Virus record (IMG/VR): IMGVR_UViG_2645727538_000003
Origin: a virus
Strand: one strand, 5' to 3'
Length of the DNA: 64,000 bases
Positions 1,115-52,870 of the stretch are shown here, piece by piece. Each line of letters starts with the position of its first letter. Positions within the stretch are counted from its first letter, which is position 1. The notes beneath the pieces were generated by a model. It ran no database searches. It had not been told where the DNA came from and saw only the letters and a list, made by a program, of their open reading frames with translations. The translations under genes and the position numbers were made by a program.

Positions 1115-1188
1115 TTTGCTTCCCCTTCCTTTGAAACTGTGATTTTATTTAGATTCAAGCCGTATCTATTCGTCCTCCTTAGGAATTG

Positions 1189-1389
1189 TCACTCTTCTTC
1201 GATCGTCCATCCGTTTAATCTTGCGTACTTTAATTTTCTTGAATATCTACGCTTCCACTCGTCCCAGTCCTTCTTCTCTTGACCTGACGTTAGTGAGCCT
1301 TTGTACTGATTTTTTCTTCTTTTCTTGTCTAGCTCTAGTATATCGCCAACCCATCTAGGAACTGACGGTCTATAGTTACTTTGCGACAT
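1189..1389 (-). CDS. Hypothetical phage protein (yosK-like by position and size)
   Basis: ORF track, 66 aa, RBS, synteny. Confidence 0.65.
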   Translation of the reverse strand: MSQSNYRPSVPRWVGDILELDKKRRKNQYKGSLTSGQEKKDWDEWKRRYSRKLKYARLNGWTIEEE

Positions 1390-1393
1390 CTAT

Positions 1394-1633
1394 TCATCCT
1401 CCAATTGTTTCTGCATAAATTTCATTGTGTCTTCCTTTGTTATTGTTTCGGCCACCCTTCTCCAAGGAGTTTTTAGCCTCTTCAACATCTGTGAATCTTT
1501 CAATCTTGTGTCTATAATCATCGATCCACCGGTAAACACATACTGCATTTTCTTCAACTTTCATGACGGTGTACTGCTGCATAGGATCTTCTAGAAGGTG
1601 AAGTTTCTGATCTTTATAAAACCCTTGAATCAT
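1394..1633 (-). CDS. Hypothetical phage protein (yosJ-like; C-terminus possibly frameshifted)
   Basis: ORF track; GAGGAGG RBS. Confidence 0.65.
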   Translation of the reverse strand: MIQGFYKDQKLHLLEDPMQQYTVMKVEENAVCVYRWIDDYRHKIERFTDVEEAKNSLEKGGRNNNKGRHNEIYAETIGG

Positions 1634-1653
1634 ATAATATCCTCCTCTTATTT

Positions 1654-1788
1654 TTATTGAATTTCTCTTACTTCATGCGGTACTCCGCTTTCTTCTTGAG
1701 CATATACAGCGTCATTGTGAGCCTCAATAGCATCATCATAAGTGTTAACAAGTGTTCCCATGCAATAAAGTCCATATTTTTTATTCAT
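1654..1788 (-). CDS. Small acidic protein (44 aa, yosI-like)
   Basis: Manual ORF MNKKYGLYCMGTLVNTYDDAIEAHNDAVYAQEESGVPHEVREIQ. Confidence 0.6.
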   Translation of the reverse strand: MNKKYGLYCMGTLVNTYDDAIEAHNDAVYAQEESGVPHEVREIQ

Positions 1789-1800
1789 TTTCATCAGCTC

Positions 1801-2142
1801 CTAATCTATTTTTGTGAATCTCTTAATCTCTTTCCCATCAATAATCACTTTTCCAAAGAACATTTCTTTAGGTCTTGCCCAAAGAACAGCGTATTGGTCT
1901 TCATATGTAACCAGCTTTTCTTCTGTTTCAGTGTGAATGACCTCTCCTATAACCTTATACAGACCCCCTTTATAATGTCTAAACCAGCAACCAGCTACTT
2001 CGTATGTATCCTTCAAAGCATTCAACAACTTCTGTGCATCTTGAGCACTTTTTGAACTGCTGTCATATTTGCTGAGATGTAAAACCGCTTCCTGCATTTT
2101 CAAATTCACTTTGTTCATCCTTCCCGGTTCCTCGAAGTACAT
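1801..2142 (-). CDS. DUF1653-type domain protein (likely start 2118)
   Basis: Motif FRHYKGGLYKVIGEVIHTETEEKLVTY...LWARPKEMF is characteristic of DUF1653. Confidence 0.75.
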   Translation of the reverse strand: MYFEEPGRMNKVNLKMQEAVLHLSKYDSSSKSAQDAQKLLNALKDTYEVAGCWFRHYKGGLYKVIGEVIHTETEEKLVTYEDQYAVLWARPKEMFFGKVIIDGKEIKRFTKID

Positions 2143-2281
2143 TAATTCTATTCACCATTTCTCTAAGCTCTTCAAGCTTCACTTTTGCATTTTCATATTC
2201 CCACTCTGGATAATACAAAGATTCCAGCTCCAAAATTCTTCTCTTGAGTAGATTGAGAACTTCTGATAATGCCTTATCCAT
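2063..2281 (-). CDS. Hypothetical coiled-coil protein
   Basis: ORF track; preceded by GAGG RBS. Confidence 0.5.
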   Translation of the reverse strand: MDKALSEVLNLLKRRILELESLYYPEWEYENAKVKLEELREMVNRINVLRGTGKDEQSEFENAGSGFTSQQI

Positions 2282-2387
2282 TCCAATTTCCTCAGCAGTT
2301 GTGTTTGAATTTATCAGAGCTTCTCGAATACGTTGAGACTGCCTTTGACTTATACTAATGTCTAATCAACTCCTTAAAATCATCCTT

Positions 2388-2744
2388 TTAAAGTAATGAA
2401 TAAAATCCCAGTTCGCTGACCGCCCCGCCAGCCATTGTTTTGAGCACTTTGAATTCTAATTTAACTGCCAAGTCTCCTGCCATGTTGAAATGAATTTTAT
2501 TAATGTCCGCCTTTAACACCTTTGTTTCGCCCTCATAACTTGTCAATTTCATTTTAAGTGGACTTTTTATCCCCTCATTCAAATCAAACACCTTATATGC
2601 TGTTGAATTCTTACCCGTGTTTATAGTAATCCTGTCCTCATCCTCAACAGCTTCAATGTTCTGGTAGTGAAGAACAATTTTCGTTTCCTTCGGTAAATAA
2701 TTATTAAATTTTTCTTTAAAAACAGAGATTTCTTTTAAAATCAT
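2388..2744 (-). CDS. Hypothetical protein
   Basis: ORF track; AAGGAGAG RBS. Confidence 0.65.
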   Translation of the reverse strand: MILKEISVFKEKFNNYLPKETKIVLHYQNIEAVEDEDRITINTGKNSTAYKVFDLNEGIKSPLKMKLTSYEGETKVLKADINKIHFNMAGDLAVKLEFKVLKTMAGGAVSELGFYSLL

Positions 2745-2780
2745 ATCTGACTCTCCTTTTGAAAAAAACTATTTTTCTGG

Positions 2781-3062: not shown

Positions 3063-3099
3063 CTCCTCTTTTGTTTAAAATAAAACTTTTAATTAAATC

Positions 3100-3297
3100 T
3101 CAATCAACTGATTCGTATTTAACCCTTGGATAAGTTGTTTGCATATAAACTTTTTTCATGCACAATGGACATTGAAACGGATACTTCGGTGGGTTTGATG
3201 TGAGCATCATATTTGCAAACACGAGCTCTGGAGCTTCCTCGCATTCATCACAATGCAACGTCTCTCTAAAAACTTTAACTTGCTGCGATTTAATCAT
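3100..3297 (-). CDS. Small zinc-ribbon-like protein
   Basis: CDEC and CPLC pairs; GAGGA RBS. Confidence 0.65.
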   Translation of the reverse strand: MIKSQQVKVFRETLHCDECEEAPELVFANMMLTSNPPKYPFQCPLCMKKVYMQTTYPRVKYESVD

Positions 3298-3315
3298 ATT
3301 CAGATTCCTCCTTCG

Positions 3316-4821: not shown

Positions 4822-4858
4822 CTCGATTCTCGATAAATGGAATATTTTATTTTTACTC

Positions 4859-7235: not shown

Positions 7236-7270
7236 TCCTAACTATATGAAATTGATCTTTTATTTAAAGC

Positions 7271-7831
7271 TCATCTTATGTATGACATAGCTTGACCATT
7301 AGATAAGTTATTCATGGTTAGCAATATTTCTTTCATGCCTTCGATTTCATGCCCTTCTTTAACTCGAACCCAAGTTGGAGTGATTCCTTTCTGTTTAAAG
7401 ACAGCATTAATAACATTCTCTCTTTTCTTGTCGGCAATTTTTTTATATCTATGTTCTTTTTCGTCGTACTCGACTATTAGCCAAATATCAGGAAAAAAGA
7501 AATCAAGACGATACCTATCAATTTTCTTTTGTCTTTCAATAATAGTGCTACAGAAGAATCTTCCCAGCCAATCTCCAAAAGATGTTTCAAATCTAGGAGA
7601 CATTTGACTATACTTATATCTTGTTATAAGTCTCTCTTTTCCATGCTCAGTGATTTTGTACAAGGGAAGTTTTTTACCGCGCTGGGACGTATAATATTGT
7701 TTGTCAAAATCGCACTCAAATTCAGGCTGTCTTTCTACGATACTCTTTATATCCCTCAGTACATGGTCATGCCTTTTCTTAAATTCCTCAGCAATCTCCC
7801 TGCTGTCTGATACGAAGTTTTCTTTGATCAT
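7271..7831 (-). CDS. Rha-family N-terminal domain fused to a DUF559/Vsr-like endonuclease domain
   Basis: Rha motif DSREIAEEFKKRHDHVLRDI...YYTSQRGKKLPLYKIT; nuclease-like QKKIDRYRLDFFFP...IVEYDEKEH...DKKRE. Confidence 0.75.
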   Translation of the reverse strand: MIKENFVSDSREIAEEFKKRHDHVLRDIKSIVERQPEFECDFDKQYYTSQRGKKLPLYKITEHGKERLITRYKYSQMSPRFETSFGDWLGRFFCSTIIERQKKIDRYRLDFFFPDIWLIVEYDEKEHRYKKIADKKRENVINAVFKQKGITPTWVRVKEGHEIEGMKEILLTMNNLSNGQAMSYIR

Positions 7832-7958
7832 TTACCCTCCTATTTAATCCCTTTAAAAGAGATATTTCAAACACTTTCACAAACACTTCACACATTTCAA
7901 ATATTTAACATGATAGACTGGAGATGTAATCACAATCAAAACCTAGGAGGTAATTCTT

Positions 7959-9217: not shown

Positions 9218-9925
9218 CTAACTAATAATCGAGATTGTCCCACTTTGTTTACCAAAATTAACTGCGTCACGCTCGGTTGCTACGAGCAAGTCCACTTTAT
9301 TTCCAACAATTGCGCCACCAGTATCAATTGCTATTGCTTTAAATGTTCTCCCACCAATTCTTACTTCAACTATTGAATTCAATGGAATAACACTTGGATC
9401 AGTTGCAATTACACGATACCCTTTGTAATAGATTGATTGAGTGACATTAACACCTGTTCTAGTTGTTCCTGTGCATCCTTCTTGGCAGTGGGCAATATAA
9501 GCACTCAGCTTAACCTGGATGGTTTTCTTTGCGGCCGGTGGCTTGTTTTCTTTTTCTTCAATACTAATTTTATTTTTATTCTTAAAAAGTTTATGCTTTA
9601 CCGTCTCACCTCCCTTCCTGTGCCTTTTCTTACTTTGCTTAGGTTTAATGAGTTTTGCTGAGATAATCTTCTCTGTATGCCTTTTTAATTGTTGTTCTTT
9701 GTTCGTTTGAGCTTTTTTAAATAGCCGTGAGACAATATTCTCACTTGATGGGATCCTAATCTGTCTAGGCTTCTTATAAAATGATTCTTTTATTGAGTCT
9801 TCATTTCCCTCTGTTTTATGTAAATGTTGCTCATAACTTATGTAAGAAAAAGTGGTTAACGGAATTAAAATCATCATACCATAAACGGATTTGAAAATGT
9901 GTGTTTTTATTTTATTTTTATCCAT
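9218..9925 (-). CDS. yorM: Membrane-anchored 3D-domain cell-wall protein
   Basis: N-terminal TM segment; 3D motif IATDPSVIPLNS...AIDTGGAIVGNKVDL. Confidence 0.85.
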   Translation of the reverse strand: MDKNKIKTHIFKSVYGMMILIPLTTFSYISYEQHLHKTEGNEDSIKESFYKKPRQIRIPSSENIVSRLFKKAQTNKEQQLKRHTEKIISAKLIKPKQSKKRHRKGGETVKHKLFKNKNKISIEEKENKPPAAKKTIQVKLSAYIAHCQEGCTGTTRTGVNVTQSIYYKGYRVIATDPSVIPLNSIVEVRIGGRTFKAIAIDTGGAIVGNKVDLLVATERDAVNFGKQSGTISIIS

Positions 9926-16772: not shown

Positions 16773-18287
16773 TTATCCTGCTTTAATATTCAATTTTTCA
16801 ACTGTAATTAATTCATTATCGAGATTTGTTGTGAAACAATCCTTGATCCGCATATTCCCCATATTTATATGGGAGAAGACTTTTACTTTGTCGTACTCAT
16901 TTCCCCTGTTTTTAAACACGTGTGTAACAAAATTTGGCTCTGGATAAAATCCTGCTTTTAAGATTGGCTCAATTGCATCCTTCTCTTTTTTACTTAAAGG
17001 AAGAATAATCATTGCACCATCAGTCTTATCGGCAATAGCTTTACTTCCTCTCAGATAAGATGCGTCTATTACTTGTCCTTTTTGCCATGCCTCTTTCCAA
17101 TCACCATTTAACTGAGTAGCACTCATCATATAAACATCGTATTTGTTACATAAGCCCTTTAACTTATCAGACATAAGCAAAAGGATTTGATCCTCTCTTA
17201 GGTTTACCCCGCTTTTTTTACTCATCTCCGAAAAAATTGTCACTGATGAGTGAATATAATCAAAGTAAATGTACTCAACATTATTTTTAATTACATTCTT
17301 TTCAATCGTTCTCTCGATCTCTTGGATATTGAAATCAGGAAGATGCTCGAACCAAATATTAGACTGCTGAAGTACTTTAGCAGCTTTGCGCACAAGCTGT
17401 TTTTCTTGCTCATTGATCGTATTTCTAAGTATTTTTTTCTCTTCTACGCCACTAATATAGGCAAGTGCCAAGCTTTGCAATTCCTCTGCCATCATTTCCG
17501 TTGAGATGACCGTGGAACTTTTATTCCAAGGATTTTTCACCCATTCTTTCTTTTTAAGGTCGTACAACTCAGTTGCACTTAATCGACAAGCATCAGCAAC
17601 CATATTCCTTGTTTTACCTCCGCCTGTAATACTTGAACGAATGTAAAACTTTTTCTTACGAGACCCACGGAAAATTGACGTAAGCATTTCACTATTTAAT
17701 GGCACTCCAATATCTGGTGACTCCTCAAAAGAATCTAATAACTCATCAATGCCTTCTCCACCTTGAATTCCCACACTTTCAGATGAGGTTCGAAACTTCT
17801 CTTTTACATCTACAATCTTCATTTCATAAGTTGCTAGAATTTCATCAATCGATTTCTTATCAAACTGTTCCTGCATTTTTTCTTGTTCTTTTGGATCAAT
17901 TATAGTTTCATCATAAATCTCCTTGATATCGAAACCTAAGCCGCTCATTTCTCTGAGCAAACTAAACTTTTTTAGTCTTTTGTAGTGGTAATCAAAGTTT
18001 TCGACTACAGCCAGCTCTTGAATTCTCTCGATGTATTCAAGGCCATTGTTGTCATGAAAAATCTTATATTGAATGTCGTAATCTTTTAGATATCCATCTA
18101 TCTCAACCTCATTCAATACTTCCGTCCCTTGCTGGAATAAGTTACTCATAGCAAAAAACAGTATTGAGTGAAATCTTGAAGGGAAATCATCCGAAGTAAT
18201 CCTATACTTGTTGCTTTCAGATAAGATTGTGGGATCCTTAAGTATGCTTCCTAAAACCTGAATAATTGCTTTTTTGTCTTGTAGCAA
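16773..18287 (-). CDS. yorI: DnaB-like replicative helicase
   Basis: Walker A SITGGGKT; STEM; FDYIH; ATQLN; GSKAIADKTD. Confidence 0.92.
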   Translation of the reverse strand: MLQDKKAIIQVLGSILKDPTILSESNKYRITSDDFPSRFHSILFFAMSNLFQQGTEVLNEVEIDGYLKDYDIQYKIFHDNNGLEYIERIQELAVVENFDYHYKRLKKFSLLREMSGLGFDIKEIYDETIIDPKEQEKMQEQFDKKSIDEILATYEMKIVDVKEKFRTSSESVGIQGGEGIDELLDSFEESPDIGVPLNSEMLTSIFRGSRKKKFYIRSSITGGGKTRNMVADACRLSATELYDLKKKEWVKNPWNKSSTVISTEMMAEELQSLALAYISGVEEKKILRNTINEQEKQLVRKAAKVLQQSNIWFEHLPDFNIQEIERTIEKNVIKNNVEYIYFDYIHSSVTIFSEMSKKSGVNLREDQILLLMSDKLKGLCNKYDVYMMSATQLNGDWKEAWQKGQVIDASYLRGSKAIADKTDGAMIILPLSKKEKDAIEPILKAGFYPEPNFVTHVFKNRGNEYDKVKVFSHINMGNMRIKDCFTTNLDNELITVEKLNIKAG

Positions 18288-22827: not shown

Positions 22828-23205
22828 TTAAACAACCTCACTCCAAGACCACATGTTCATTGTCTGCATCGTAAAACCATCAGGAAGCTTTTTCATTTTA
22901 ACATTCACATTGTATCTCTTCCCAGTAGTCTTATGGATCACAGCAAGTTCTTCACCATCATAGAACCGCACAATTGCTTCATTAAATTCAATTGGCTGAT
23001 CAACCACATAACCTTCTTTAAGCGCTCTGATATACAGATAAGGATCTGCCTTATAAAGCTCATATAGTCTATTACCAAAGTCTTCGTGTTTATCTCTAAG
23101 TAGGTTAAAATTAATCAGGGATATGTACAGTTTTTCAGATAAGCTCAGTTTGTTCTTGAAATACCGAATTGCTTCATCTTGTTCTTTGCTTAAAATATTG
23201 GTCAT
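22828..23205 (-). CDS. Conserved SPbeta-type protein (yorC-like)
   Basis: Synteny after yorA; 125 aa. Confidence 0.6.
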   Translation of the reverse strand: MTNILSKEQDEAIRYFKNKLSLSEKLYISLINFNLLRDKHEDFGNRLYELYKADPYLYIRALKEGYVVDQPIEFNEAIVRFYDGEELAVIHKTTGKRYNVNVKMKKLPDGFTMQTMNMWSWSEVV

Positions 23206-23243
23206 ATATCCATCTCCTAATCTTATTAAAACTACAGTTTTAT

Positions 23244-25807: not shown

Positions 25808-26096
25808 TTAATAACCACTCCTTTTATTTTTGTTTTATTCTTAAAACTCCAATCACACAGGTAACTCACATTGTTATCACCCCCTTAAATAAAAAATTGA
25901 TTTTATTTAGACATACAAGTTAAATCCAAGACACAATATTACCGCATTCTAAATGCACGTGTTCCCAATCTCCTTCCCAAGGCCCTTCTACCAAGTCAAC
26001 CTCATAATCAACTTCATCTTTTTCGATTACTTTTTCACATTCGTTGCAGAAGCAGGTAAACATTTTCACTCCTCCTCTTTCTGTAAAATATCGTTT

Positions 26097-26534
26097 TTAT
26101 TTAGACTCTAAAAGCTCAGGATCTTCGTAAATGTTGCCGATGACTTCTAAATCAACATGAGCTACAAATACAGTAGTCAAGCCTCGCTTTATTCTCTTGA
26201 ATCTAAAACCTGGCACCTCTTTTGTCCAATAGATCCCGTCTGAAGCATGTTCAGCAACTTCTTCCTTCCACAAAACTTCTAATAGCTCATTTGAATTATC
26301 ACGGTGGTTCCTTACAATGTCTCCCTCATAAATCTCCTGACCGTTTTTGTCCTTCAGCCCGGTATATTGCAAATAAATTAGATGGTGCAACGTTTTAAAA
26401 TTAGGTTCGTCTTCTGTGATGTCTGTAGCAACAATACCGCTTCCACCAAACTCAAAAACAATGTCATCTTCTTCGCCTAAATAAAGCATTCTTTCTTTGA
26501 CATCGTCCCATGCCCGAAACTTGGTTTCCCTCAT
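26097..26534 (-). CDS. YopX-family protein
   Basis: KFRAWD; QYTGLKDKNGQEIYEGDIV; EVIGNIYEDPELL. Confidence 0.88.
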   Translation of the reverse strand: MRETKFRAWDDVKERMLYLGEEDDIVFEFGGSGIVATDITEDEPNFKTLHHLIYLQYTGLKDKNGQEIYEGDIVRNHRDNSNELLEVLWKEEVAEHASDGIYWTKEVPGFRFKRIKRGLTTVFVAHVDLEVIGNIYEDPELLESK

Positions 26535-26716: not shown

Positions 26717-26801
26717 TTCGCCGCCTCCATTTTCAATTTAAATTCATCTTTTTAAATCTATGTTTTTTATCTTCATCGAAGCTATCCGCTCTCGCCGATT
26801 A

Positions 26802-29122: not shown

Positions 29123-29218
29123 CTGTTCTCCCCTTTTGAATAAATTAACTATTTTATTTTGATCCTTTAATAATCACCAAATATCATAGCCCACAAAATC
29201 ATTTAGAATATTCGTCAT

Positions 29219-30376: not shown

Positions 30377-30391
30377 TTTGAAAACTATCTT

Positions 30392-30907
30392 TTAATTAGA
30401 TATCGTTATTGAACTCCAATCAAACGTTTCGAGAATTTTAAGCAGCCGCTCTACTTTCGGTGCCCTCCAAGCTGTCATTGCGTAAGTATGAGCTTCTGAA
30501 GTGTAGTGATGCCTATTTAATTTGATATGAGCCTTCGCTTCTGCTTTGGTCAAAAACATTGTATCCGGCCGTACAATATGAACCTTTCTTTCTGGAATTA
30601 ATTCTGCTTCTTCATCAATGTATTTTTGAATCCACTCAATAGGATCATCAAAGTCATCCTTTTTCAACTCAGTTAAAGCTTCCTTAGAGAGCTCACTATC
30701 TTCTTTTAAATCTTCTAAATAATCATCTAAAACATATGCTTCTGCAATATATGGCAGGTATACAGAATACCGTTCTGCGTTTTCTTCTCGAACTTCGACC
30801 CATTCATAATCGCCAACTGTCCAGAAACGCGGTGCAGCTTGACAGTCGCTGTCTTGATTTTTCAACTCTTGCTGAAGTTCTTTTAAAAACTGAATATCTT
30901 GATTCAT
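30392..30907 (-). CDS. YoqJ-like protein
   Basis: 171 aa; QAAPRFW and HTYAMTAWRAP motifs; synteny. Confidence 0.65.
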   Translation of the reverse strand: MNQDIQFLKELQQELKNQDSDCQAAPRFWTVGDYEWVEVREENAERYSVYLPYIAEAYVLDDYLEDLKEDSELSKEALTELKKDDFDDPIEWIQKYIDEEAELIPERKVHIVRPDTMFLTKAEAKAHIKLNRHHYTSEAHTYAMTAWRAPKVERLLKILETFDWSSITISN

Positions 30908-31027
30908 TCGCTTCCTCCTATCTGTTTAAAATCACGATTTTAACTATTTATGATCTATTATTCACTTTCAAAGTAACTTCCATTTAACTCATAATTAATA
31001 TATAAAATGTAAATGGAGTTGATATAT

Positions 31028-31669: not shown

Positions 31670-31966
31670 TCAATTATGTGCTTTAAATAACCTATATGCC
31701 TTCCTCCTTACAATGAAATAATCCTTTAATTGTGATTTATTTTCCAACGCTTTTAATTCTTCTTCATACAAAGGTAGAATAGCCTTTTCGGCTTCGCCCC
31801 TAGACACACCATGCTGCTCTATATATGTAACAATATCCATTCCAATGTTATTTCCTAGCTCGGTTTCCCAAACTATGTGATCAGCCATAGCAAGATTTCC
31901 ATCCATTAAGTAGTTCATCCCCTTTCTCTTTAAAACAGTCTTTTTATTGTGATTCTGTAGCCCCAA
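31670..31966 (-). CDS. Hypothetical protein (likely start MNYL near 31918)
   Basis: ORF track; AAGGGG RBS before the internal ATG. Confidence 0.5.
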   Translation of the reverse strand: MGLQNHNKKTVLKRKGMNYLMDGNLAMADHIVWETELGNNIGMDIVTYIEQHGVSRGEAEKAILPLYEEELKALENKSQLKDYFIVRRKAYRLFKAHN

Positions 31967-32939: not shown

Positions 32940-32973
32940 CTTTCCATCAACCTTTCTCTTTAAAGTTTTACTT

Positions 32974-33210
32974 TTAATCCAATTTCCTCATATCATCCCT
33001 CTGTTTAATATAGCTTTTGAAATATTCCCAATCCTGATCAATTTCCTTAATGTTAAGCTCAATGAAATTCTCTGCCTGTTTTCCATCTATCATGTTGCTT
33101 ACAGAAAGTTGAAACATCATCTCAATTTTCGCGATTCTCTCTGCAAGAATTCGAGAGTACTCTTTTGCTTTATTTAAACGTCCTTGACTTAATCCGTGTT
33201 TTGTTTCCAT
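32974..33210 (-). CDS. Hypothetical protein
   Basis: ORF track; AAGGAGG RBS. Confidence 0.6.
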   Translation of the reverse strand: METKHGLSQGRLNKAKEYSRILAERIAKIEMMFQLSVSNMIDGKQAENFIELNIKEIDQDWEYFKSYIKQRDDMRKLD

Positions 33211-33918: not shown

Positions 33919-34548
33919 TCACCCCATACCCTGTTCTGTTATAGATTTTATTAATGTATTAATTTGTCCACCAATAACTGTGGATGCCGCTCCCTTTATT
34001 ACATCCTTTAAGATTTTTAAAAACTTAATGAGTTTACTCTTATCAGGCGACTCATTGCCTATCTCTCTTTCAATCCCTTTAATGGCATCCGAAGATAAAG
34101 CAGCTTGATCAAATTTCAAATTTAAAGTTTCGTACTCCTTTTTAAATAAATGTATAAGGTTGACTAACGATTCTTTTAAATCACTAGCATTATAATTGTT
34201 GCCTTGATGTAAATGAGAATTATGCATGTACTGTATGTTAGTTGTGTAATTATTTTGTATAATGTATTGCTTATCCTCTTCCGTCTTCATGTATAATGAA
34301 AGTTCTCCCTTCATAAGTTCCCGGTGATAAATTATTTCTTCGTAAAAGATTTCTTCTACTGATAGACCCAGCCCTCTACTTATTTGTAATGCAGTTTGAA
34401 TGCTCATAGAACATTTGACACCAGAAGCATAACAACTTAATTTTTGCACGTTGATACCGGTCAAAGATGACAAATCATGTATAGTTAATCCCTTTTCACT
34501 TAATATCTCTCTAACTCGATTTCTTAATGTAGTCTCGACTAACTTCAA
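33919..34548 (-). CDS. XRE/Cro-type HTH fused to an unknown C-terminal helical domain
   Basis: NRVREILSEKGLTIHDLSSLTGINVQKLS...ISRGLGLSVEEIF. Confidence 0.7.
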   Translation of the reverse strand: MKLVETTLRNRVREILSEKGLTIHDLSSLTGINVQKLSCYASGVKCSMSIQTALQISRGLGLSVEEIFYEEIIYHRELMKGELSLYMKTEEDKQYIIQNNYTTNIQYMHNSHLHQGNNYNASDLKESLVNLIHLFKKEYETLNLKFDQAALSSDAIKGIEREIGNESPDKSKLIKFLKILKDVIKGAASTVIGGQINTLIKSITEQGMG

Positions 34549-34590
34549 TTATTAAACCGCCTTATTTTCTATTTAAAATGCATCTTTTAA

Positions 34591-34998
34591 TCACTTCTTT
34601 GCAGCATAGCTCTCAAAGAATTCTTCAACTGATCTTAGGTATCGGTATTTATTTGGATCTTCTGGATTTCTGAATCTTTTCGAAAGCACCAATGACCAAT
34701 TAAACATCATTGGGGAAAACCTTGCCCATTTGCTAAAGCTTAACTGAAGACCTTTCCATTCTCTCCCCGCTAATTCTGCTAATTCGAGAATTTGGTCTTC
34801 TTTTAAATTCACTTCTTCTTCAAACATTACTTGAATTTCCTCGTATGGTTTATGTCCAAAACAACAGTGGCGTGTTTTCAATCCAATCTTGAAATTCAAA
34901 ATATCAATTAAATTGATCATTTGTGTATCAAGTTCATCATAGGGAATGCCATTTGTAATGAATTTTTCTCTTTGGTTTGTTTTCACATTAACCTCCAA
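34591..34998 (-). CDS. YoqC-like protein
   Basis: 135 aa; synteny. Confidence 0.6.
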
Positions 34999-35358: not shown

Positions 35359-35555
35359 CCGATCTTTCTCTTATACTCTGCTGCTGTACCTTTTACAACG
35401 AATGCACTACCATTTTTGAAGGATACTTTGCTCCCGTCTTCTGTGTCAGTAATGCTTTCGATATCGTCATAATTAAAACGGTAAAACGGTATTAACTCTC
35501 CATCCGTCTTGCGTTTACGGTAGACCACAAATTCCTTAAATTTTGATTCACTCAT
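35340..35555 (-). CDS. Hypothetical protein
   Basis: ORF track; 4-nt overlaps with neighbours. Confidence 0.55.
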   Translation of the reverse strand: MSESKFKEFVVYRKRKTDGELIPFYRFNYDDIESITDTEDGSKVSFKNGSAFVVKGTAAEYKRKIGWEGTE

Positions 35556-36097
35556 TCCGCGCCCTCCAATGCTTCTCTGGCTATTTGCCCTCGGTCTACT
35601 TCCATGAAAGAAGGATTAAAATCGCCAAAACGTTTTTCATTTTCAACCGTGGCCCACTGCGACATACGCAGTGTTCTTCGGTATTTGTTTTCATCTGCAT
35701 ATACTTGCAGAGCCTCTTTAAAGCGATTGTTCTCCGCCCGGAGACGGCTGATTTTTTCCTGGGCCTGCCGGAGTTCCTTTGTATTTGCTTCCTGTATGGC
35801 TTTGGCTTCACCTTCATGACCCCAAGTTTCATATGAAATTAACTGCCCTTCATTGATGTTTAAATCAGGTCTATTTCTTTTTATATATTTAGCGAAACCT
35901 CCACACAAAACCGTCTCATCGCTATGACAAGCCCAATTGTGTCCACTCTTTTCCTTCATCTCTACGATTTGCTGGGGTGTGGGCAAACATCCGTAATTTT
36001 GAACCATTTCAGCTTCATCACTGTGCGAGAAGGGACAACTCATACATCCTCCACTTCCACAATAAGAACGTTCAATCATATTTATTTCTTTCAACAT
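35552..36097 (-). CDS. Cys-rich N-domain plus coiled-coil C-domain protein
   Basis: CGSGGCMSC, GCLP, WACH and CGG motifs, then a coiled coil. Confidence 0.6.
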   Translation of the reverse strand: MLKEINMIERSYCGSGGCMSCPFSHSDEAEMVQNYGCLPTPQQIVEMKEKSGHNWACHSDETVLCGGFAKYIKRNRPDLNINEGQLISYETWGHEGEAKAIQEANTKELRQAQEKISRLRAENNRFKEALQVYADENKYRRTLRMSQWATVENEKRFGDFNPSFMEVDRGQIAREALEGAE

Positions 36098-36127
36098 ATA
36101 TCCCCCTTATCTGAATCTCGATAAAAC

Positions 36128-36352
36128 TTACATTTTATTTTTATCCTTAAAATATTCATGTTGATTCACAACATCACGAAGTATGTACTGTATTTCCTCT
36201 AAATTGTCTTTAACAAAGTCCAGGTCTCCAATTGCCATTCTGATTTCATTATTCTCTATGCTGCGCAAAGACCTTTCACATGATGCTAAGAGCTTTGTAT
36301 ATTTCCTCAAAACCATAGTTCTTATTTGATCGTTAATTGGTTTATTAATCAA
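36128..36352 (-). CDS. Hypothetical helical protein
   Basis: ORF track; AAGGAG RBS. Confidence 0.55.
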   Translation of the reverse strand: MINKPINDQIRTMVLRKYTKLLASCERSLRSIENNEIRMAIGDLDFVKDNLEEIQYILRDVVNQHEYFKDKNKM

Positions 36353-37687: not shown

Positions 37688-38671
37688 TTAAGAATTAGTC
37701 TCAATTACTTCAGACTTGATACAATATTTTTCTAAGTTCTCCATATTCACTACTTTCCTCAGTGATTGAGAATTAAACTCCGCGTCTTCATTCAGGAACC
37801 CATATTGTCGAGTTATTTTTTTATAATCAGGTACTTTTAATTCGCCCTTCTCTTTGTATATCTCATACGCCATGTTGAGCTTTCCTGAGTTGATAAGATT
37901 CTTGGGTGAAAAGAAGGGTTCTTCTAAAAATTTTTGAAACTGACTAAAAGATCGGTGAACTAAAAATTTATCAGCTTTCATACTCTGATTAGAACTCTTA
38001 TATTTTAGCCTAAAAATGTTTTCGCTTTTAACTAATGTAGCAAATTTGTTTTTAAGTCCACTCTCTGGCGAACCATTGCTAAGATGATATGTTGTTTGAT
38101 CATTAGCGCGCTTAAGCAACTCATAACATTTATCGCTTACAGTAATTATTCTTACACCATGTTTATCATCTACCAGCTTTACCTTGTTATCATCAAGTAA
38201 ATCGTCACCTGTTAAATTCAGTAACTCTGAATGCTGATAACCATCTATACCTTCATAAATAGCCTGTATCATCGCTTTATCCTGATCATTAACCATAAAA
38301 TCAACATATTCTTCTACTTCTTTATTGGTGAATAGTGTTTTTTTGTTTTTATCTATAAACTGCTTTAAGTCACCATCCTGTATCTGATACACTTTGTTGA
38401 TGTTACTGTTTGCCAAGCCATTTTCCATTGCCCATGTTGTGTATTGTCCAATTACAGCTCTTGCTCCTCTTAGTGAATCTATAGATTTGCTATCTAAATC
38501 TAAAAATAACGTACGCAGCTCTTCCAAAGAAAAATTAAATATGTCTTTTTGAAGTATTTTTTCTGTAGCTGAGAAATCCCTTAGCCTTAGCCAATAATGG
38601 TTTCTTGTTGCTTCACTTTCGTATTTCTCTAAAAACTTTTCCTTCAATTCAGCATTATACATTTCACTCAT
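37688..38671 (-). CDS. yopR: Master repressor with degenerate tyrosine-recombinase fold (SroF/YopR/MrpR)
   Basis: [11 protein letters not shown] start; integrase-like fold lacking HxxR; last gene of the sro operon. Confidence 0.88.
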
Positions 38672-38691: not shown

Positions 38692-40041
38692 TTAAACAAC
38701 AGCAATTTCATCATAAAATATTCGCTTAAGTTTCTTCTTCATAACATTCTTTAGTTGATTTTCATTATTTTGTCTTCCTAATTCTTCAAACACTCTTCCG
38801 CTTTTACTAAAGTCAATCGTATTAAGGATATTTTCAAGCTTGTTTAGTTCTACATTGTTTTCCTTCATCTTCTTGGCCAAATAAACATAACCGTAAAACA
38901 TTACGTTATGATTAATGTATGATTGCTTTCTAATGGACGATAAATCATCTTCAAGAAATTCATCTGGGAAGGCATAAAAAAGGTTATCGAAAAAGTCTAC
39001 CAGGTATTTCGCAATTTTCAACGCATCTTTTCGAGATTTCAACTCAAATGCATCGTCTATAGCTTCCGATAAAGTATAATATGTCACAAGAAAATTGCTA
39101 TCGATACCAATTTCACTTTGTGGGCTTATTTTATTTTTAAGTTCACTTTTAAATTTCAACTGCTCGACAACGGTTGAAGAATACCGTTTTTGTCCCAATT
39201 CTTCAATTCTGGATTTTTCAACTGGGTTAATTGTATTCATTTGAGCAAAGTGAACCTTAGCCTTTTCTTCATCGTAATTGAGCACATTTAAAATGAATGG
39301 TTGATCTAATTCAGGGACTTCAGCAATGGCCTTAACAATACCTGAAATTCGATGATATCCATCAAGAGCATCTAATAAGGTTCCTCGTGTTACAGTGAGG
39401 GTTTGATCGCTTGGATCATATTCAACTTCTTCATCACCATCAGATGTTCCAAGACGAGCGTTAAAAGTTAACATTGACACAATTAAATCGCCTTTAATAA
39501 ACAATTCTTTGATCTCATCAACTGATTTAGGGTTTGTTTTAGGTACAGGAATAAGGCTGCCCTTAATGTACTTTCCTTCACGCTGAGTGTTGTAATTGTA
39601 CTGCAGGATGGAGCTATTATATAACTCACTTAGTTCTTTGGCAGTAATGGAAGTGACATAGTTATCCTCTTTAATTTTAATCACATTTTTAAACTTGTAT
39701 GGGAGTTTAACTACTTCTTCACCGGCGAATACTCTCCCACCTTCAAGCTCTTTTGCCAATCTGGTTGGAAAATAATTTGACGGATCTAAAGCTTGCGCCC
39801 CAAGAATTGAATACATCTCTTTTGAAACAATGTACACTTCTTTTTCGTTTAAACGCTGTACATTGTTATCATTATTATTTAAAATTTCTTGGATATAACC
39901 AGGGAGTGCCTTGTATTTGTCCGCCATTGTGGCTTTTAATTCCTTCACCATATTGGGATCATTTTTAATATCATTAAGATTTTCCTCTATTTCAGTTTTT
40001 AACTTATAAAGTTTATCCATTGTCAACAAAACTTCAGACAC
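38692..40041 (-). CDS. yopQ: SroE/YopQ, DndB/ParB-like (DGQHR-type) protein
   Basis: YNYNTQR; LDALDGYHR motif; position in the sro operon. Confidence 0.85.
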
Positions 40042-40117: not shown

Positions 40118-41176
40118 TCACTTGTTCAAAAACATTTTAAGTTTATTCTGTATATACATGTCTGATTTTAAAAAGAATTCTTTATATTGCTCTAATGTAA
40201 CATCATCTAAAAAGGACATATCTTCTTTTTGATCAACCAAAACCCCTGGATCTTGAGAATAATCCCTTTCATTGACTAAATAATGGTCATTTAAAGTATT
40301 AATATTGCTGTGACCAGAGAACGCTGCCACTTTTTTAATATCACCATTAACGCTGTAAGAAAAGTTTGTTGCAGTATTGCGTAAGCTATGCGGAGTTATC
40401 TTTCTTTCTTTGGGAATGCCCATAACTCTACATACGCGATTCCACATATCCTGTATTGAATCAACTGTTAACTTATGAAATAACAACTCATGTTCCCCAT
40501 ACTCTTGCTTTAACAGCAACAACTCTTCATAAAAAGCAGTGGAAATCCCAACTGGCCTAGCCTTTTTTTGCTTAGTTTTTTTAAAGTTGACTAGATAGCA
40601 TTGGTGCTTCTCTGAATAAGTAATATCATCCCACCCAACTCTAAGCACCTCTGATTTACGCCCACCAGTACGTGCACTAAACAAAATAAACATCTTTTTC
40701 ATTAATCTGTTCTGACGCTCAGTAGCATAAGCTGCCTCAGCAAATTCATCAGCTTCCGATATTCCTTCAAAAGACCCTGCTGGATTCTTTTCTGTTGGAA
40801 GAGGTCTAAAATTAAATACAGATGAATCACACTCATGTTCAGATTCAAGATACTTAATCATGCTTTTCAGTGCGGCAATCTTATTGTTAATTGTTGAATT
40901 GGAGTTACTTTTATTTTTAGCCAAATGGGTTCGATAATCATACAGGTCGCTTTTCTTGATCGCCAGGTCACTCTCAGTTAAATATTCAATATCCTTGGCA
41001 GCATAGTGGTTGAAAAACTCTCTTATATGCCTTTCATACGTGGCTCTAGTATTAGACTTTTCAATTTCTCCAGTTTCTCGATCCCTGTTTCTTAAATCTA
41101 ATTCATCAAACCACCTATTTATGTTATTGTATATTGAATAATCCCTTAGTGTTGACGCTTTCTTTTGAGCTCCCAT
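40118..41176 (-). CDS. yopP: SroD/YopP tyrosine-recombinase-family protein
   Basis: SAM-like N-domain; TGGRKSE; KTK; HSLR; GHS...DHY. Confidence 0.88.
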   Translation of the reverse strand: MGAQKKASTLRDYSIYNNINRWFDELDLRNRDRETGEIEKSNTRATYERHIREFFNHYAAKDIEYLTESDLAIKKSDLYDYRTHLAKNKSNSNSTINNKIAALKSMIKYLESEHECDSSVFNFRPLPTEKNPAGSFEGISEADEFAEAAYATERQNRLMKKMFILFSARTGGRKSEVLRVGWDDITYSEKHQCYLVNFKKTKQKKARPVGISTAFYEELLLLKQEYGEHELLFHKLTVDSIQDMWNRVCRVMGIPKERKITPHSLRNTATNFSYSVNGDIKKVAAFSGHSNINTLNDHYLVNERDYSQDPGVLVDQKEDMSFLDDVTLEQYKEFFLKSDMYIQNKLKMFLNK

Positions 41177-42444: not shown

Positions 42445-43584
42445 CTAAATTAAATTTAGCAGCTCCGGATCACAGCCTAATTTTTCGAGTTCCATTATTG
42501 TCAATTGGATAAAATATTTATCATCTGATTTTTTGAAATATGTTATTGATTTATAAAAATCAGATTTTTGTTTTGAAATCAAACCTTTATAATAAAAATA
42601 AAATCCTAATTCATTTTCATCTTGATCCCTAGTTGATAAGCTTTCCAATAATTCGTTAGCCTTGTCGAGATTATTATTTTTTATGTAATAAAAAGCTCTA
42701 AGCTGCTGATATTTAATATCATCTGATTCATAGTTAACCCATGGATTCCCCTTGTCCCATACGTTAGCTAGGAAGCAAAGAGCACCATTTAGCATTTCTT
42801 TATGGGTATCATTAAGAACATACTTCTTTGCCTCATTATACGCCAGCATAGCTTCTTCATAGTTTTCGAAAATTAGAGTGTTTCCTATTGTCAGATGCGC
42901 AAAAAAACATATTCGGTTCACATTGGACTGCATTATTGCAATATTTGAATGTTTCCTCGCTTCGATTAAATTGTTTTCATTTAAGCTTATATTCGCTTGT
43001 AACATTGACACTCTACTTTTGTACGAATCTTTTATAAATCCTTCTGGCAAGCTTTTAAAATCTAAAAGTGTTAAGGTGCTTTTCATCAATCCAAACTCAC
43101 CAATATTCAAGTATTTATACATCAGCATTGCATCTGAGAAAAATGACATTTCTGGGGCTTTGCATCTCCCGCACTCTCTTATTGCTTCTGGTATTGAGAT
43201 TTCGTTTTTATAAAGCTTTCTGTGTATGCTGTAGATGTTGCCCCATTCTTGACTTGTGGTGTTTTTTGAGTTGCTTAAATTTAAAATAATCTTGTCTGTT
43301 AACGTATCCCATTGATTAATATCTGAGTATTCAACAGATTGTCTAGCACATTTTTTGTTGGGATCCAGTGATAAGAAGTAATCACTTAGAAGCTGCTCCT
43401 CATTATCTGGAAACAAGCTTTTAACAATATTAATTAAACCGCCTAAGTTGTCCATTTCTTTCTCTGGGGTGTTGATGAATTTGTAAAAGCCGTTAACCTT
43501 TTCGTACCCTGCTATTTTTGAGAGTTTCGCTGCGAGCTGGTTGTCTTTTTCACATTCATTCTTAATCATCTGCTTAAGATTCAT
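42445..43584 (-). CDS. aimR: Arbitrium receptor (RRNPP family, HTH plus TPR)
   Basis: MIKNECEKDNQLAAKL...ARQSVEYSDINQW...DENELGFY; phi3T-type; upstream of aimP. Confidence 0.95.
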   Translation of the reverse strand: MNLKQMIKNECEKDNQLAAKLSKIAGYEKVNGFYKFINTPEKEMDNLGGLINIVKSLFPDNEEQLLSDYFLSLDPNKKCARQSVEYSDINQWDTLTDKIILNLSNSKNTTSQEWGNIYSIHRKLYKNEISIPEAIRECGRCKAPEMSFFSDAMLMYKYLNIGEFGLMKSTLTLLDFKSLPEGFIKDSYKSRVSMLQANISLNENNLIEARKHSNIAIMQSNVNRICFFAHLTIGNTLIFENYEEAMLAYNEAKKYVLNDTHKEMLNGALCFLANVWDKGNPWVNYESDDIKYQQLRAFYYIKNNNLDKANELLESLSTRDQDENELGFYFYYKGLISKQKSDFYKSITYFKKSDDKYFIQLTIMELEKLGCDPELLNLI

Positions 43585-43745
43585 TGGTTACTCCACCCCT
43601 TCCCAACTAATGTTCCCTTGTTTATAATATACATTAGAGTTGTCAGAATTACAAGTATTTATTTTATTTTTATTCTAATTATTTTTTAAGGAATAATTAT
43701 CTGTTTAAAATTCGTATTTTATGTAAACCGGCACAATAAGGATTC

Positions 43746-47119: not shown

Positions 47120-47255
47120 TAATTCACTCCTTCATATCTGCGTTCTAAACACCTTTTCATGTTCTGATGATTGTTTTTCGTTCCACAGTTGTCTTAGTTC
47201 CACATAAAAGAATGATTTCATTGCAATTTAAGTGCTTCTAGCCTAGGAGTCTTCC

Positions 47256-50493: not shown

Positions 50494-50609
50494 TGGTCCT
50501 CATCACCCCATTATTTTGACACTTTATGCTAGTATAGATAAATTAATAATGGCTGCCTATTTATAAATTACATTCAAGTTAAAATGGTGTTTTTATTGTA
50601 AAGCCCGTC

Positions 50610-50828
50610 TTATTTGTTGTCTGCGTCAGTCATTATAAAAAGTCTCTCATACTCTAAATCAAAAGCATCAACAAACGCCTTCTTTGCTATTGCACTTGTG
50701 ATAACTAAATTGTCTTCACTCGTTTTGTCTGCTCTTCTAAAAACATTTTCCGCGGCGCTTTTGGCCAGTTCTCCTATTCCATTTTCACTAACATCAATCA
50801 TAAAATCCCTAAGTTCTTTTGTGTTCAC
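50610..50828 (-). CDS. Hypothetical protein
   Basis: ORF track; GTG start overlapping the upstream stop. Confidence 0.5.
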   Translation of the reverse strand: MNTKELRDFMIDVSENGIGELAKSAAENVFRRADKTSEDNLVITSAIAKKAFVDAFDLEYERLFIMTDADNK

Positions 50829-51034
50829 TTTATAATCCCCTCAGCTTTCAATTTCTTTATGTAACCAAACAAAGCATCTCTCACCTCTGTATCATCCCAA
50901 CTCCACTTTTTAGCAAGAGATATAATTTCTACAGGCAAAATCTTAACAATAGTTTGTATTTCAGAATTATTCGGTGCTCTTCTATAAGCATCTACAAAAC
51001 AGCAGTCGTTTATTTGATCATTCATGCTATTCAA
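50825..51034 (-). CDS. Hypothetical protein
   Basis: ORF track; conserved-looking SWDDTEVRD motif. Confidence 0.55.
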   Translation of the reverse strand: MNSMNDQINDCCFVDAYRRAPNNSEIQTIVKILPVEIISLAKKWSWDDTEVRDALFGYIKKLKAEGIIK

Positions 51035-51078
51035 TTGGTTAAGCGCTCCTATTACATATTTTATTTAATATCATCGAC

Positions 51079-51189
51079 TTAACCAATAACTTTGATATTT
51101 TCACTTTCACAAGATGGACAGTCTTCATCAAAGTCATCGCCAATCCATCTATACTCACATTCTTCGCACTTGATTAGTAGCTCATCCAT
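51079..51189 (-). CDS. Tiny zinc-ribbon peptide (36 aa)
   Basis: Manual ORF MDELLIKCEECEYRWIGDDFDEDCPSCESENIKVIG. Confidence 0.5.
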   Translation of the reverse strand: MDELLIKCEECEYRWIGDDFDEDCPSCESENIKVIG

Positions 51190-51228
51190 TGTTCATCTCT
51201 CCTTTTTAAAGGGTTATTGCATGCAGTT

Positions 51229-51456
51229 CTATTTCAACCCTTTTTTCATATCTTGTAATTGATTGTACACTTGCTCTAATTCATCATCGTATAATTGAAA
51301 CTCTTTTACATCTTCTTCTGAGAGTTTCACCTTAAAATCAATAGCAATCTCTCCGTTGGGGTCAGGGTTATTTATATAATAAAAAACTTCCGCTCCATCA
51401 TCGTAGTCAAATTTAATCCATTTCTTCATGTTAATCACCTTTCTTTTAACATTCAT
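51229..51456 (-). CDS. Acidic hypothetical protein
   Basis: ORF track; likely start MKKW. Confidence 0.5.
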   Translation of the reverse strand: MNVKRKVINMKKWIKFDYDDGAEVFYYINNPDPNGEIAIDFKVKLSEEDVKEFQLYDDELEQVYNQLQDMKKGLK

Positions 51457-51892
51457 TTTTTTTATTAATCAATGTACCCAAGAGGAAGAGGTTCCAGAAA
51501 AAAAGATTGGTGAACTGCAATTACCTCCGAATCACTTTCCTCCGATTTATATATAATTTCAAGTACGACACTATCTAATGCACCTTTTGTTTTCTTGACT
51601 TCAATGTCCATTTGAGCACTCCTTTCATTGTTTTTGATCTTTTTAATAAGTTGTTCTATTTAATCTCGGCTTCAATTTGTATAAACTCTCCCAGTGGCTC
51701 AACACATGCTACTTCGTACATGCAGTCGTCATATGTATTGAGTAGAACCTGTGTTTCCTCTGTTATTTGCCCTTTGTCCATCATCTCTTGCAATGAATCA
51801 ATCAATTGTTTAACCTTCATGGCTATTGTATTTCCCCTCTCTTTTGCTACTCAGTTGCATAACTAATTAATGGCTTAATTTCTTTTACATAT

Positions 51893-52186
51893 TCAAAAAA
51901 ACTGCTGTTGACCTTCAAGAATGCCAAACAATTCATGCCTACCAGTAAAGACCCATTGAGGGGACTCCCCATTTGTCTGTATCTCTACAGTAAAGCTTAC
52001 TCCTTTTGTATTAATCTCTTCATCTTCCTCGATTTCATAATGATGTTCAATTAATCTTTTCAACGTTTGACCGTCTTTTATTTCCTTAGAATAAAATGTC
52101 AACCCCTGATCTTCATATTCCTTTAGTTTAAAGCCGTTGTCCAGTAAGAATTGAAGGATTTTTTCATTTAATTTTGATTTTGTCAT
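51893..52186 (-). CDS. Hypothetical protein
   Basis: ORF track. Confidence 0.55.
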   Translation of the reverse strand: MTKSKLNEKILQFLLDNGFKLKEYEDQGLTFYSKEIKDGQTLKRLIEHHYEIEEDEEINTKGVSFTVEIQTNGESPQWVFTGRHELFGILEGQQQFF

Positions 52187-52280
52187 GCTTTATTCTCATC
52201 TCTTTAAAACTGCTGTTTTATACTAAATTGGTTTTTTGCTGTAGCATACCTACCGAGAACCCGATCAATTTTATTTATAA

Positions 52281-52745
52281 CTATTTCAGTTGCTGTAATG
52301 TTTGTCTTGCTTTTTCTAAATAAGCATCATCATTAAAGATTCTATACAAAGTCATATAATCATTATGTTCATCAAGAATTTGGTCTACTGTTCTTGTCTT
52401 TTTGAAAATATACTCCTTCTCAGTAGCTTTTTCTGTTTCTGCTTTTTTGGATACATCGCTGCTCTTTTGTTCGATTTCCCCTGATTGCTCTAAAAGCTGA
52501 ACAATGTCCATGCCAACTTTGTAATTTCTTTTGCCAAATTGGATGGTGGCCTCGCCCCAAAACATTTGATAATCAACCAGTATCCCTTGAGATCCTTTTT
52601 TCTTTAAGACTCTGTCCCCAGAAATCGTTGTGTGATTTTCTGTTAATATAACAGTACTTCCAATTAGATTATGAAGTTCTTTTTGAGACAATTTTTTAAG
52701 TGTTGTTTTCATATTAAATATCCCCATTCTGTTTAAAATATGCAT
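52281..52745 (-). CDS. Hypothetical protein (likely start MKTT)
   Basis: ORF track; downstream of an operator-bearing promoter. Confidence 0.6.
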   Translation of the reverse strand: MHILNRMGIFNMKTTLKKLSQKELHNLIGSTVILTENHTTISGDRVLKKKGSQGILVDYQMFWGEATIQFGKRNYKVGMDIVQLLEQSGEIEQKSSDVSKKAETEKATEKEYIFKKTRTVDQILDEHNDYMTLYRIFNDDAYLEKARQTLQQLK

Positions 52746-52870
52746 TTTATTTTATTTTTACCCTTAAAATATGTATGCTTTCGCTGTTGTTTTAACTTGA
52801 TTTAAGTATATCATGACTATTTTAAATAATCAATACTTATTTTATTTTTATTCTTAAAGTGTGTGTCTTG

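Follow-up and report, generated by a model that had tools for sequence, protein, structure and literature searches.

During the analysis of a 64,000-nucleotide stretch of viral DNA (IMG/VR record IMGVR_UViG_2645727538_000003; the whole stretch is called the window here), we examined a repeated palindrome, TAAAA-N6-TTTTA, which is a real, family-wide and apparently undescribed element of the SPbeta-like phages. The sequence comparisons make it somewhat probable that this palindrome is the core of a 28-bp docking site on double-stranded DNA for a symmetric phage-encoded protein, with SroE as the leading candidate for that protein and with the homology breakpoints seen at the element as a secondary matter. 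The window corresponds to positions 19267-83266 of a 125,329-bp SPbeta-like phage genome, and the phages phi3T and BUCT083 match it with approximately 79% identity across half of a 24-kb stretch. Most of the window genes are carried by the minus strand; among the genes are those of yor replication functions and, adjoining aimR, the sroD-sroE-sroF (yopP-yopQ-yopR) operon.

The scan of the window detected 15 perfect copies of the palindrome, against 1.05 expected from dinucleotide shuffles, in which the largest value was 5. A preliminary description of the sequence had counted 13 perfect copies; these are real and enriched, the actual number being 15. In the whole 125-kb genome 24 perfect copies were found, and the relatives of this phage have 30-37. 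A spacer of six nucleotides was the only one enriched, with 24 copies genome-wide, most other spacings giving 0-3 copies and N11 giving 8. As a class, the one-mismatch copies of the window are not enriched (22 versus about 20.7 expected). Ten of the 22 are intergenic (p = 1e-4), a figure whose spacing control is contaminated by perfect copies read in a shifted register, and at least six of these ten share the 6-base centre with a perfect copy of a relative, so that the intergenic one-mismatch copies can be taken as decayed or variant orthologues. The altered arm lies on the side of the downstream gene in eight of the ten (1132, 4834, 7247, 26739, 29141, 30379, 32961 and 61222). Within any one genome the 6-base centre was never found repeated.

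The copies have a characteristic location. Twelve of the 15 perfect copies are intergenic, whereas non-coding sequence makes up 12% of the window (p = 3e-9), as expected from the proposal that the motif sits at gene ends. The proposed order of stop codon, motif, ribosome-binding site and start codon was also observed, since the next start codon lies 15-29 nt beyond the end of the motif in 57% of the co-directional intergenic copies (eight genomes). However, convergent or divergent gene pairs flank 37 of 164 intergenic copies, and 19 copies lie between convergent genes; the motif therefore does not require the context of a ribosome-binding site. The sites are scattered through the early, late and lysogeny regions and on both strands. 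The claim that the long replication genes contain none did not hold, because one copy (16945) is located inside the replicative helicase gene. The two pairs described as bracketing single genes, 7247/7854 and 30379/30927, are at these positions, but three of the four copies have one mismatch. The copies of the window are listed below without strand.

Perfect copies:
2375-2390, an arm overlaps the stop codon of the open reading frame (ORF) 2388-2744 (minus strand)
3076-3091, 8 nt past the stop of ORF 3100-3297 (minus strand) and 22 nt ahead of the next start; centre shared with SPBc2, phi3T and BUCT083
9777-9792, within the yorM-like ORF 9218-9925 (3D domain); SPBc2 and phi3T have a copy at the same place
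16945-16960, within the replicative helicase gene (16773-18287); kept in SPBc2 and phi3T
23227-23242, 1 nt past the stop of ORF 23244-24986 (minus strand) and 21 nt ahead of the start of ORF 22828-23205
25890-25905, intergenic
26084-26099, overlaps the stop of ORF 26097-26534 (minus strand); centre shared with SPBc2 (95129)
30927-30942, 19 nt ahead of the start of the yoqJ-like ORF 30392-30907 (minus strand)
31931-31946, start codon 24 nt on; centre shared with SPBc2 and phi3T, flanks different
34574-34589, 1 nt past the stop of ORF 34591-34998 (minus strand) and 25 nt ahead of the start of ORF 33919-34548; centre shared with SPBc2 and phi3T
36122-36137, 24 nt ahead of the start of ORF 35552-36097 (minus strand); overlaps the end of a copy of a second repeat (AAGGATAAAAATAAAAT)
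43706-43721, 121 nt ahead of the aimR-like gene (42445-43584), and ahead also of the repeat associated with its promoter
50580-50595, intergenic
52205-52220, 18 nt ahead of the start of ORF 51893-52186 (minus strand)
52734-52749, start codon 21 nt on; centre shared with SPBc2 and phi3T, upstream flank unrelated

Intergenic one-mismatch copies:
1132-1147, intergenic, reads TAAAA-N6-TTTCA on the coding strand
4834-4849, intergenic, centre as in a perfect SPBc2 copy (116415)
7247-7262, intergenic, centre as in a perfect SPBc2 copy (113664)
7854-7869, intergenic, 22 nt ahead of the start of ORF 7271-7831 (minus strand)
26739-26754, intergenic
29141-29156, intergenic
30379-30394, at the stop of ORF 30392-30907, centre as in a perfect SPBc2 copy (92394)
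32961-32976, intergenic, centre as in a perfect SPBc2 copy (86886)
47205-47220, intergenic, centre as in a perfect BUCT083 copy (10234)
61222-61237, intergenic

In the yorM-like ORF 9218-9925, the 3D domain is C-terminal and the palindrome is reached after about 45 codons of the called frame. The called start has no detectable ribosome-binding site, and the true start of this ORF may be located downstream of the palindrome.

Eighty unique sites from three genomes were aligned in the coding direction. The consensus obtained, T-Y-T-N3-TAAAA-K-N4-M-TTTTA-N3-A-R-A, is a 28-bp dyad of the form 11+6+11, which confirms the geometry of inverted arms around a 6-bp core given in the preliminary description. 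In these sites the degenerate positions mirror each other (Y/R at -5/+5, and K/M where the spacer meets the arms), and Watson-Crick pairing above column shuffles was not observed at any symmetric pair. Eight Spbetavirus genomes pooled gave 192 unique perfect N6 copies, compared to about 8 per control spacing; in the same genomes neither single-mismatch nor compensatory double variants of the arms exceeded the controls. In the phages of Paenibacillus and in the Psychrobacillus phage Perkons, the second arm position can be A or G, and the two arms assort independently. The combinations AA, GG and mixed were found 15, 14 and 20+17 times in P. illinoisensis, 17, 10 and 11+14 times in Perkons and 33, 4 and 20+23 times in P. 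vulneris, other spacings giving about 1-2. These three phages with T-R-AAA arms, which may represent one lineage, carry 52-80 sites per genome, whereas in the phages of Bacillus, Staphylococcus and Mammaliicoccus the enrichment at this position is for A only. Among 152 collinear pairs, the arms were conserved at 96.6%, the spacer at 92.1% and the flanks at 87%.

The lack of covariation, together with the independent choice of A or G in each arm, excludes a hairpin and indicates a symmetric dimer on double-stranded DNA; these data point to a motif that acts as two half-sites, each read by one half of such a dimer. An RNA or cruciform hairpin was rejected on these grounds (no covariation, no enrichment of compensatory variants, arms assorting independently), and the RNA processing signal that had been named as one alternative is excluded by the pairing, variant and arm-assortment tests. 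In its wider form this explanation supposes a small AU hairpin, or a protein-binding site on the transcript, which acts in processing, stability or translation. The regular distance to the start codon would suit it, but besides the absence of covariation and of compensatory variants, mixed arms that would leave an A-C mismatch in a hairpin occur as often as those that would form a G-U pair, the symmetry of the base preferences persists in spite of the alignment on the coding strand, and copies occur between convergent genes. Moreover, a 5-bp A-U stem is marginal by nearest-neighbour energetics. We therefore give almost no credence to a transcript element.

The palindrome is not limited to the close relatives of this phage. 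Perfect copies number 15-46 in each of 18 SPbeta-like phages and prophages, whose hosts belong to seven genera, from Bacillus to Clostridioides, and an identical core is found in phages of Bacillus, Paenibacillus, Geobacillus, Psychrobacillus, Staphylococcus, Mammaliicoccus and Clostridioides. The counts of perfect copies are given below; the control spacings in the distant elements were mostly 0-5, and up to 9 in the AT-rich LIBA2945.

SPBc2: 34
Further Spbetavirus genomes: 31-37 each (reversed-pattern control 0-2)
B. pseudomycoides prophage: 28
Bacillus sp. prophage (G005): 46
P. vulneris: 33 (plus 47 A/G-arm variants)
P. illinoisensis: 15 (plus 51 A/G-arm variants)
Geobacillus virus E3: 30
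Psychrobacillus phage Perkons: 17 (plus 35 A/G-arm variants)
Mammaliicoccus phi6255: 36
Staphylococcus SPbeta-like: 17
Clostridioides LIBA2945: 18

A de novo scan of the distant elements returned TAAAA-N6-TTTTA as the top palindromic 5-N6-5 word in all those scanned except P. illinoisensis, where the variant TGAAA-N6-TTTCA ranked first. The element was not enriched in the B. pseudomycoides host, which has 105 copies genome-wide compared to 111 of the reversed control, and 28 of the 105 are in the prophage contig; in a 9.1-Mb assembly, the phage contig holds 24 of 25 copies. A host-wide regulatory motif is consequently not supported, as the tested B. pseudomycoides chromosome has no enrichment. 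Scanned against both the dinucleotide-shuffled null and a host chromosome, as had been proposed for this element, the phage is enriched and the tested host chromosome is not. These observations bear on the idea that a conserved host factor, e.g., a nucleoid protein of the Bacillota, binds the sites instead of a phage protein. In its favour, the core is identical in phages of seven host genera, among which the candidate phage proteins share just 24-41% identity. However, apart from the unenriched chromosome, phage groups differ in the base accepted at position 2 (A alone in some, A or G in others), which fits a co-evolving phage protein better, and we consider a host factor very unlikely.

Description of the palindrome was not found either by full-text search for the motif string or in a review of SPbeta (PMC8270828), and Lazarevic et al. 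1999 could still mention it. In the GenBank record of SPBc2 a single copy is annotated, as part of a stem_loop.

The sroD-sroE-sroF operon encodes two candidate binding proteins, SroE and SroD, and the master repressor SroF, which is included for context:
37688-38671, minus strand, sroF, yopR (MrpR)-like master repressor gene, with a longer and different operator
38692-40041, minus strand, sroE, yopQ-like gene (449 aa), Pfam DndB (DGQHR), putative ParB/Srx-like central domain; leading candidate binder
40118-41176, minus strand, sroD, yopP-like gene of a Xer-type tyrosine recombinase (352 aa) with R, HxxR, H and Y all present; second candidate binder

Only YorL, YorJ, SroF and SroE were detectable in all nine distant motif-bearing elements, and SroE was present in 17 of 17 other genomes checked. 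By elimination and by family resemblance, SroE (YopQ) is the leading candidate for the binding protein, an assignment that we make tentatively and with less than even confidence. It matches Pfam DndB with E = 5e-16, and its DGxHR sequence is invariant. The best fold matches of SroE are ParB, Noc, KorB and PadC, and they are weak (Foldseek E >= 0.03, VIA Z <= 6.3, with a predicted local distance difference test score, pLDDT, of 73 for the model). The search of the SroD and SroE sequences against solved structures returned nothing useful. The yopQ gene is transcribed in the lysogen, and its deletion results in translucent colonies (bioRxiv 10.1101/2021.11.22.469490).

The preliminary description had proposed that the small-gene arrays may be exchanged as cassettes at these sites. 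In a comparison of eight genomes, the ends of homology are concentrated 6-15 bp to either side of the motif centre. A breakpoint was found at 88% of the motif-bearing junctions versus 48% of the other junctions and, for co-directional junctions with spacers of 25-70 nt, at 80% with and 40% without the motif (odds ratio 5.8). Compared with neighbouring junctions within 3 kb, breakpoints were seen in 1.56 versus 0.99 comparator genomes per junction, these counts being non-independent across genomes. The suggested alignment of SPbeta-like genomes thus shows that homology ends coincide with the motif beyond other gene junctions. In 258 cases of one-sided homology, the partner has a motif with the same centre and homology ceases at the core's far edge; the motif remained linked to the downstream gene in 171 of these cases and to the upstream gene in 87. 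On the other hand, none of 98 clean unique indels was bracketed by a motif pair (26 had a motif at one end and 72 at neither). When one mismatch was allowed, motifs at both ends were found for 1 indel versus 2.3 expected and for 24 replacements versus 22, the expectations being products of the single-end frequencies. Only about 15-19% of the indel and replacement edges carry a motif, more than 80% being elsewhere, and in collinear alignments identity changes across the motif by a step of 0.052, compared to 0.046 at control junctions. Of the cassette proposal, the preference of breakpoints for motif junctions is retained, whereas the bracketing of exchanged genes (0/98 indels) and a constant recombinase were not found. 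The tests of bracketing and of half-sites thus favour a docking site, and any recombination there is probably secondary to it.

A rival explanation regards the sites as recombination joints, where a Xer-like recombinase (SroD/YopP or the enzyme at the YomM position) would cut at the edges of the 6-bp centre; the unique centre would then permit exchange only with the cognate junction of a relative infecting the same cell and leave synteny intact after swaps. The 11+6+11 geometry equals that of dif-type sites, and the position of the breakpoints, the one-sided cases with a kept centre, the conservation of the centre beyond that of the flanks without repetition within a genome, and the presence of R, HxxR, H and Y in the SroD of this phage are all in line with such joints. 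The enzymes fit less well. SroD is missing from P. vulneris, a phage with 80 sites, and Lys takes the place of the second catalytic Arg both in SroD of the SPbeta type and in every YomM orthologue. At the YomM locus two phages (G001 and G005) have an unrelated integrase instead, and their motif is unchanged; no tyrosine recombinase was found to be constant across the phages that keep the motif. In addition, pair-bracketing was absent and both-end counts were at the level of chance even with one mismatch, most indel and replacement edges lie away from the motif, and the collinear identity step hardly differs from the control. The crossovers of phi3Ts x SPbeta laboratory hybrids also count against the joints, as they lie within identity blocks of 1.4-18 kb and the only junction mapped sharply, to 40 bp, has no motif within 7 kb; as a direct test of site-specific exchange these hybrids are uninformative, since their junction intervals consist of 1.4-18 kb of identity. 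Taken together, we regard recombination joints as distinctly unlikely.

Several further observations concern these recombinases and hybrids. SroD scored best with Xer models, and the integron-integrase model gave 29.8 bits versus a cut-off of 265. The gene of the YomM tyrosine recombinase is located at 103358-104359 of G000, outside the window, in the tail-gene region. YomM is the most conserved protein of the SPbeta-like supergroup, with 54-80% identity compared to 22-57% for the DNA polymerase YorL (80% and 22%, respectively, in Geobacillus E3), and it has HxxK in place of HxxR throughout. The blocks of complete identity between SPbeta and phi3Ts that contain hybrid crossovers often start or stop a few bases from a palindrome, as for example in Hyb2, where the block 104630-106035 has palindromes at 104632 and 106012.

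The breakpoints could also be expected if the motif had no binding function and were a conserved spacer, made of stop codons and an AT-rich leader, that is spread as micro-homology, e.g., by the Sak4-like YorG. Their clustering at the motif, the stop codon often held by the upstream arm and the position of the site ahead of the ribosome-binding site agree with this. However, ten invariant bases with an exact 6-bp spacing and dyad symmetry in seven genera need sequence-specific selection, the 5-bp arms and differing centres leave non-cognate sites with too little shared homology, and copies also occur inside genes and between convergent genes. A spacer of this kind is in our opinion highly improbable. 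Micro-homology, named as an alternative in the preliminary description, may nevertheless act as a side effect of a site kept for binding; of the alternatives listed there, a protein operator gives the best fit.

It is important to distinguish the palindrome from SPBRE, the operator of MrpR/YopR/SroF (PMC10516654). The SroF box comprises 24-26 bp and is bound by a monomer (bioRxiv 10.1101/2025.11.27.690993). Both elements are repeated and intergenic in the same phages, and SPBRE sometimes adjoins the motif, as at the SPBc2 aimR and yosX promoters. However, the ten MrpR promoters known from chromatin affinity precipitation sequencing (ChAP-seq), read in the SPBc2 sequence, share approximately ACAAATACAAAWAATATGTATATAAT, overlapping sigma-A-type promoters. 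Because these ten promoters share a different sequence, the identity of the palindrome with SPBRE was rejected, and the palindrome is a second, different element. SPBRE is asymmetric, bound by a monomer and present in about 10 copies, and it differs between SPbeta and phi3T, whereas the palindrome is identical in both. Promoters of YonO were likewise rejected, as YonO uses a single start site, upstream of yonK (PMC5467207).

The genome studied here has a second repeat, approximately ttAAGAATAAAAATAAAAT, with about 29 copies, 25 of which are in the window. Its orientation almost always follows local transcription, and often either a sigma-A-like -35/-10 pair follows it closely or a ribosome-binding site comes immediately after it. 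It is probably the counterpart in this (phi3T-type) phage of the SPBRE/SroF box, and it explains the 33 copies of TTTTA-N1-TTTTA seen in the spacing scan. The positions in the window are:
minus strand: 400, 4844, 5105, 6992, 9567, 15428, 19859, 20821, 21259, 31560, 36132, 36422, 37638, 41363, 41918, 43661, 49687, 52839, 56420, 56499, 58774
plus strand: 42588, 61529, 61595, 61815

Among the matches in the genome collection, the YorL nearest to that of the window (80%) was found in NZ_JBHVTC010000023.1 (133 kb, 36% GC), a contig of a "Streptomyces sp." assembly. This contig is an SPbeta-like Bacillus phage genome, 88-97% identical over long stretches to the genome of this phage, and it is almost certainly a contamination of the Streptomyces assembly or a mis-binned contig.

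Dispersed palindromes that are read by dimers of the ParB family are known from Noc-NBS and ParB-parS. Like these and like KorB-OB, the element is a palindrome of 13-16 bp, probably read by a dimer, with many copies on one replicon, and a role in genome-wide silencing or organization is proposed here too. Replicon specificity of the parS/NBS/OB type was also observed, with 15-46 perfect copies per phage and no enrichment in the tested host chromosome. KorB-OB of plasmid RK2 is a palindromic operator system with a second repressor, KorA (PMC11790492). The proposed similarity is that a ParB/Srx-fold protein stands beside a second repressor of the same element, KorA on RK2 and SroF here. In contrast to these systems, SroE belongs to the DndB/DGQHR branch and not to canonical ParB, and the centre of the site is variable here, unlike in parS, NBS and OB. 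DndB, a member of the same Pfam family as SroE, is a repressor which acts on bipartite palindromes with a free spacer; it binds TACG-N10-CGTA, with footprints of 26-33 nt (PMC4507180). In that case two boxes are located at the promoter of one DNA-modification operon, whereas here 20-80 sites are spread genome-wide in the absence of dnd genes, and both arms and spacing are unlike those of TAAAA-N6-TTTTA.

Other systems resemble the element in part. The stoperators of Cluster A mycobacteriophages (gp71 of L5) are about 20-35 repressor sites in short gene spacers of early and late operons. The palindrome shares with them the many sites in short spacers throughout the genome, but a stoperator is an asymmetric 13-mer that follows the direction of transcription and is recognized by the immunity repressor itself, whereas the motif is palindromic and SroF uses another sequence. 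The dif/pdif sites of XerC/XerD have 11-bp arms and a 6-bp centre, and two sites bracket each pdif module, as they do each integron cassette. An 11+6+11 site at the edges of exchangeable genes, in a phage with Xer-like genes, recalls them; two-site bracketing and a family-constant recombinase are missing here. The attC sites of integrons are imperfect palindromes of 57-141 bp that act as a folded single strand, while this site has 16-28 bp and no pairing signal within it. Finally, the PeSL of T4-type phages combines a promoter with an RNA stem-loop and acts through homology. It is likewise short and conserved, is found where small early genes of a hyperplastic region meet, and is linked to modular shuffling, but the palindrome is neither a promoter nor a stem-loop.

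We propose that the two half-sites would be read independently by two subunits of a symmetric DNA-binding protein encoded by the phage, and that the 20-80 copies per genome would act as dispersed operators or loading sites, as with KorB, Noc, ParB or the stoperators, serving genome-wide silencing or organization of the prophage or phage DNA. SroE, the leading candidate binder, is co-transcribed with the master repressor SroF. The sites lie in very short gene spacers, presumably because these are the sole room left in compact genomes; the TAA stop codon often belongs to the upstream arm, and the outer part of the downstream arm runs into the ribosome-binding site. As each site would be a perfectly conserved island that has to be kept intact, gene replacements would end at its edges, and the site may add short homology for exchange. 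In this way, the clustering of breakpoints could be explained without a dedicated cassette recombinase.

Several points weigh against this proposal. The link to SroE comes from elimination and family resemblance, the fold matches of SroE are weak, and YorJ, which is likewise universal in the distant elements, remains a candidate. The core is all-or-none, with one-mismatch copies unenriched overall, which is stricter than in most operators. The 6-base centre (92.1%) is more conserved than the coding flanks (87%), and no centre is repeated within a genome, although chance alone predicts the latter. Moreover, the motif junctions are approximately 1.6-fold richer in breakpoints than their immediate neighbours, which an operator explains only indirectly.

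A more far-reaching possibility, speculative and rather unlikely, is a two-part silencing system similar to KorB-KorA, in which SroE would load at the 20-80 palindromes, cooperate with SroF, a repressor of recombinase fold, at the promoter boxes and thereby silence the 130-kb prophage, while the sites with their private centres would double as preferred crossover points that keep the register. If true, it would be without precedent among phages and would tie silencing sites mechanistically to genome mosaicism.

The repressor, arbitrium system and RNA polymerase of SPbeta, a model temperate phage, are well studied, and yet no description of this palindrome, with its 30-odd copies per genome and its conservation between the phages of Bacillus and those of Clostridioides, turned up in the literature searched. 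The palindrome would offer a target for YopQ/SroE. The motif also marks the end of about one in six gene swaps in the highly mosaic SPbeta-like genomes, and swaps that end at its edge bear on the ways in which accessory, defence and counter-defence genes pass between large temperate phages.

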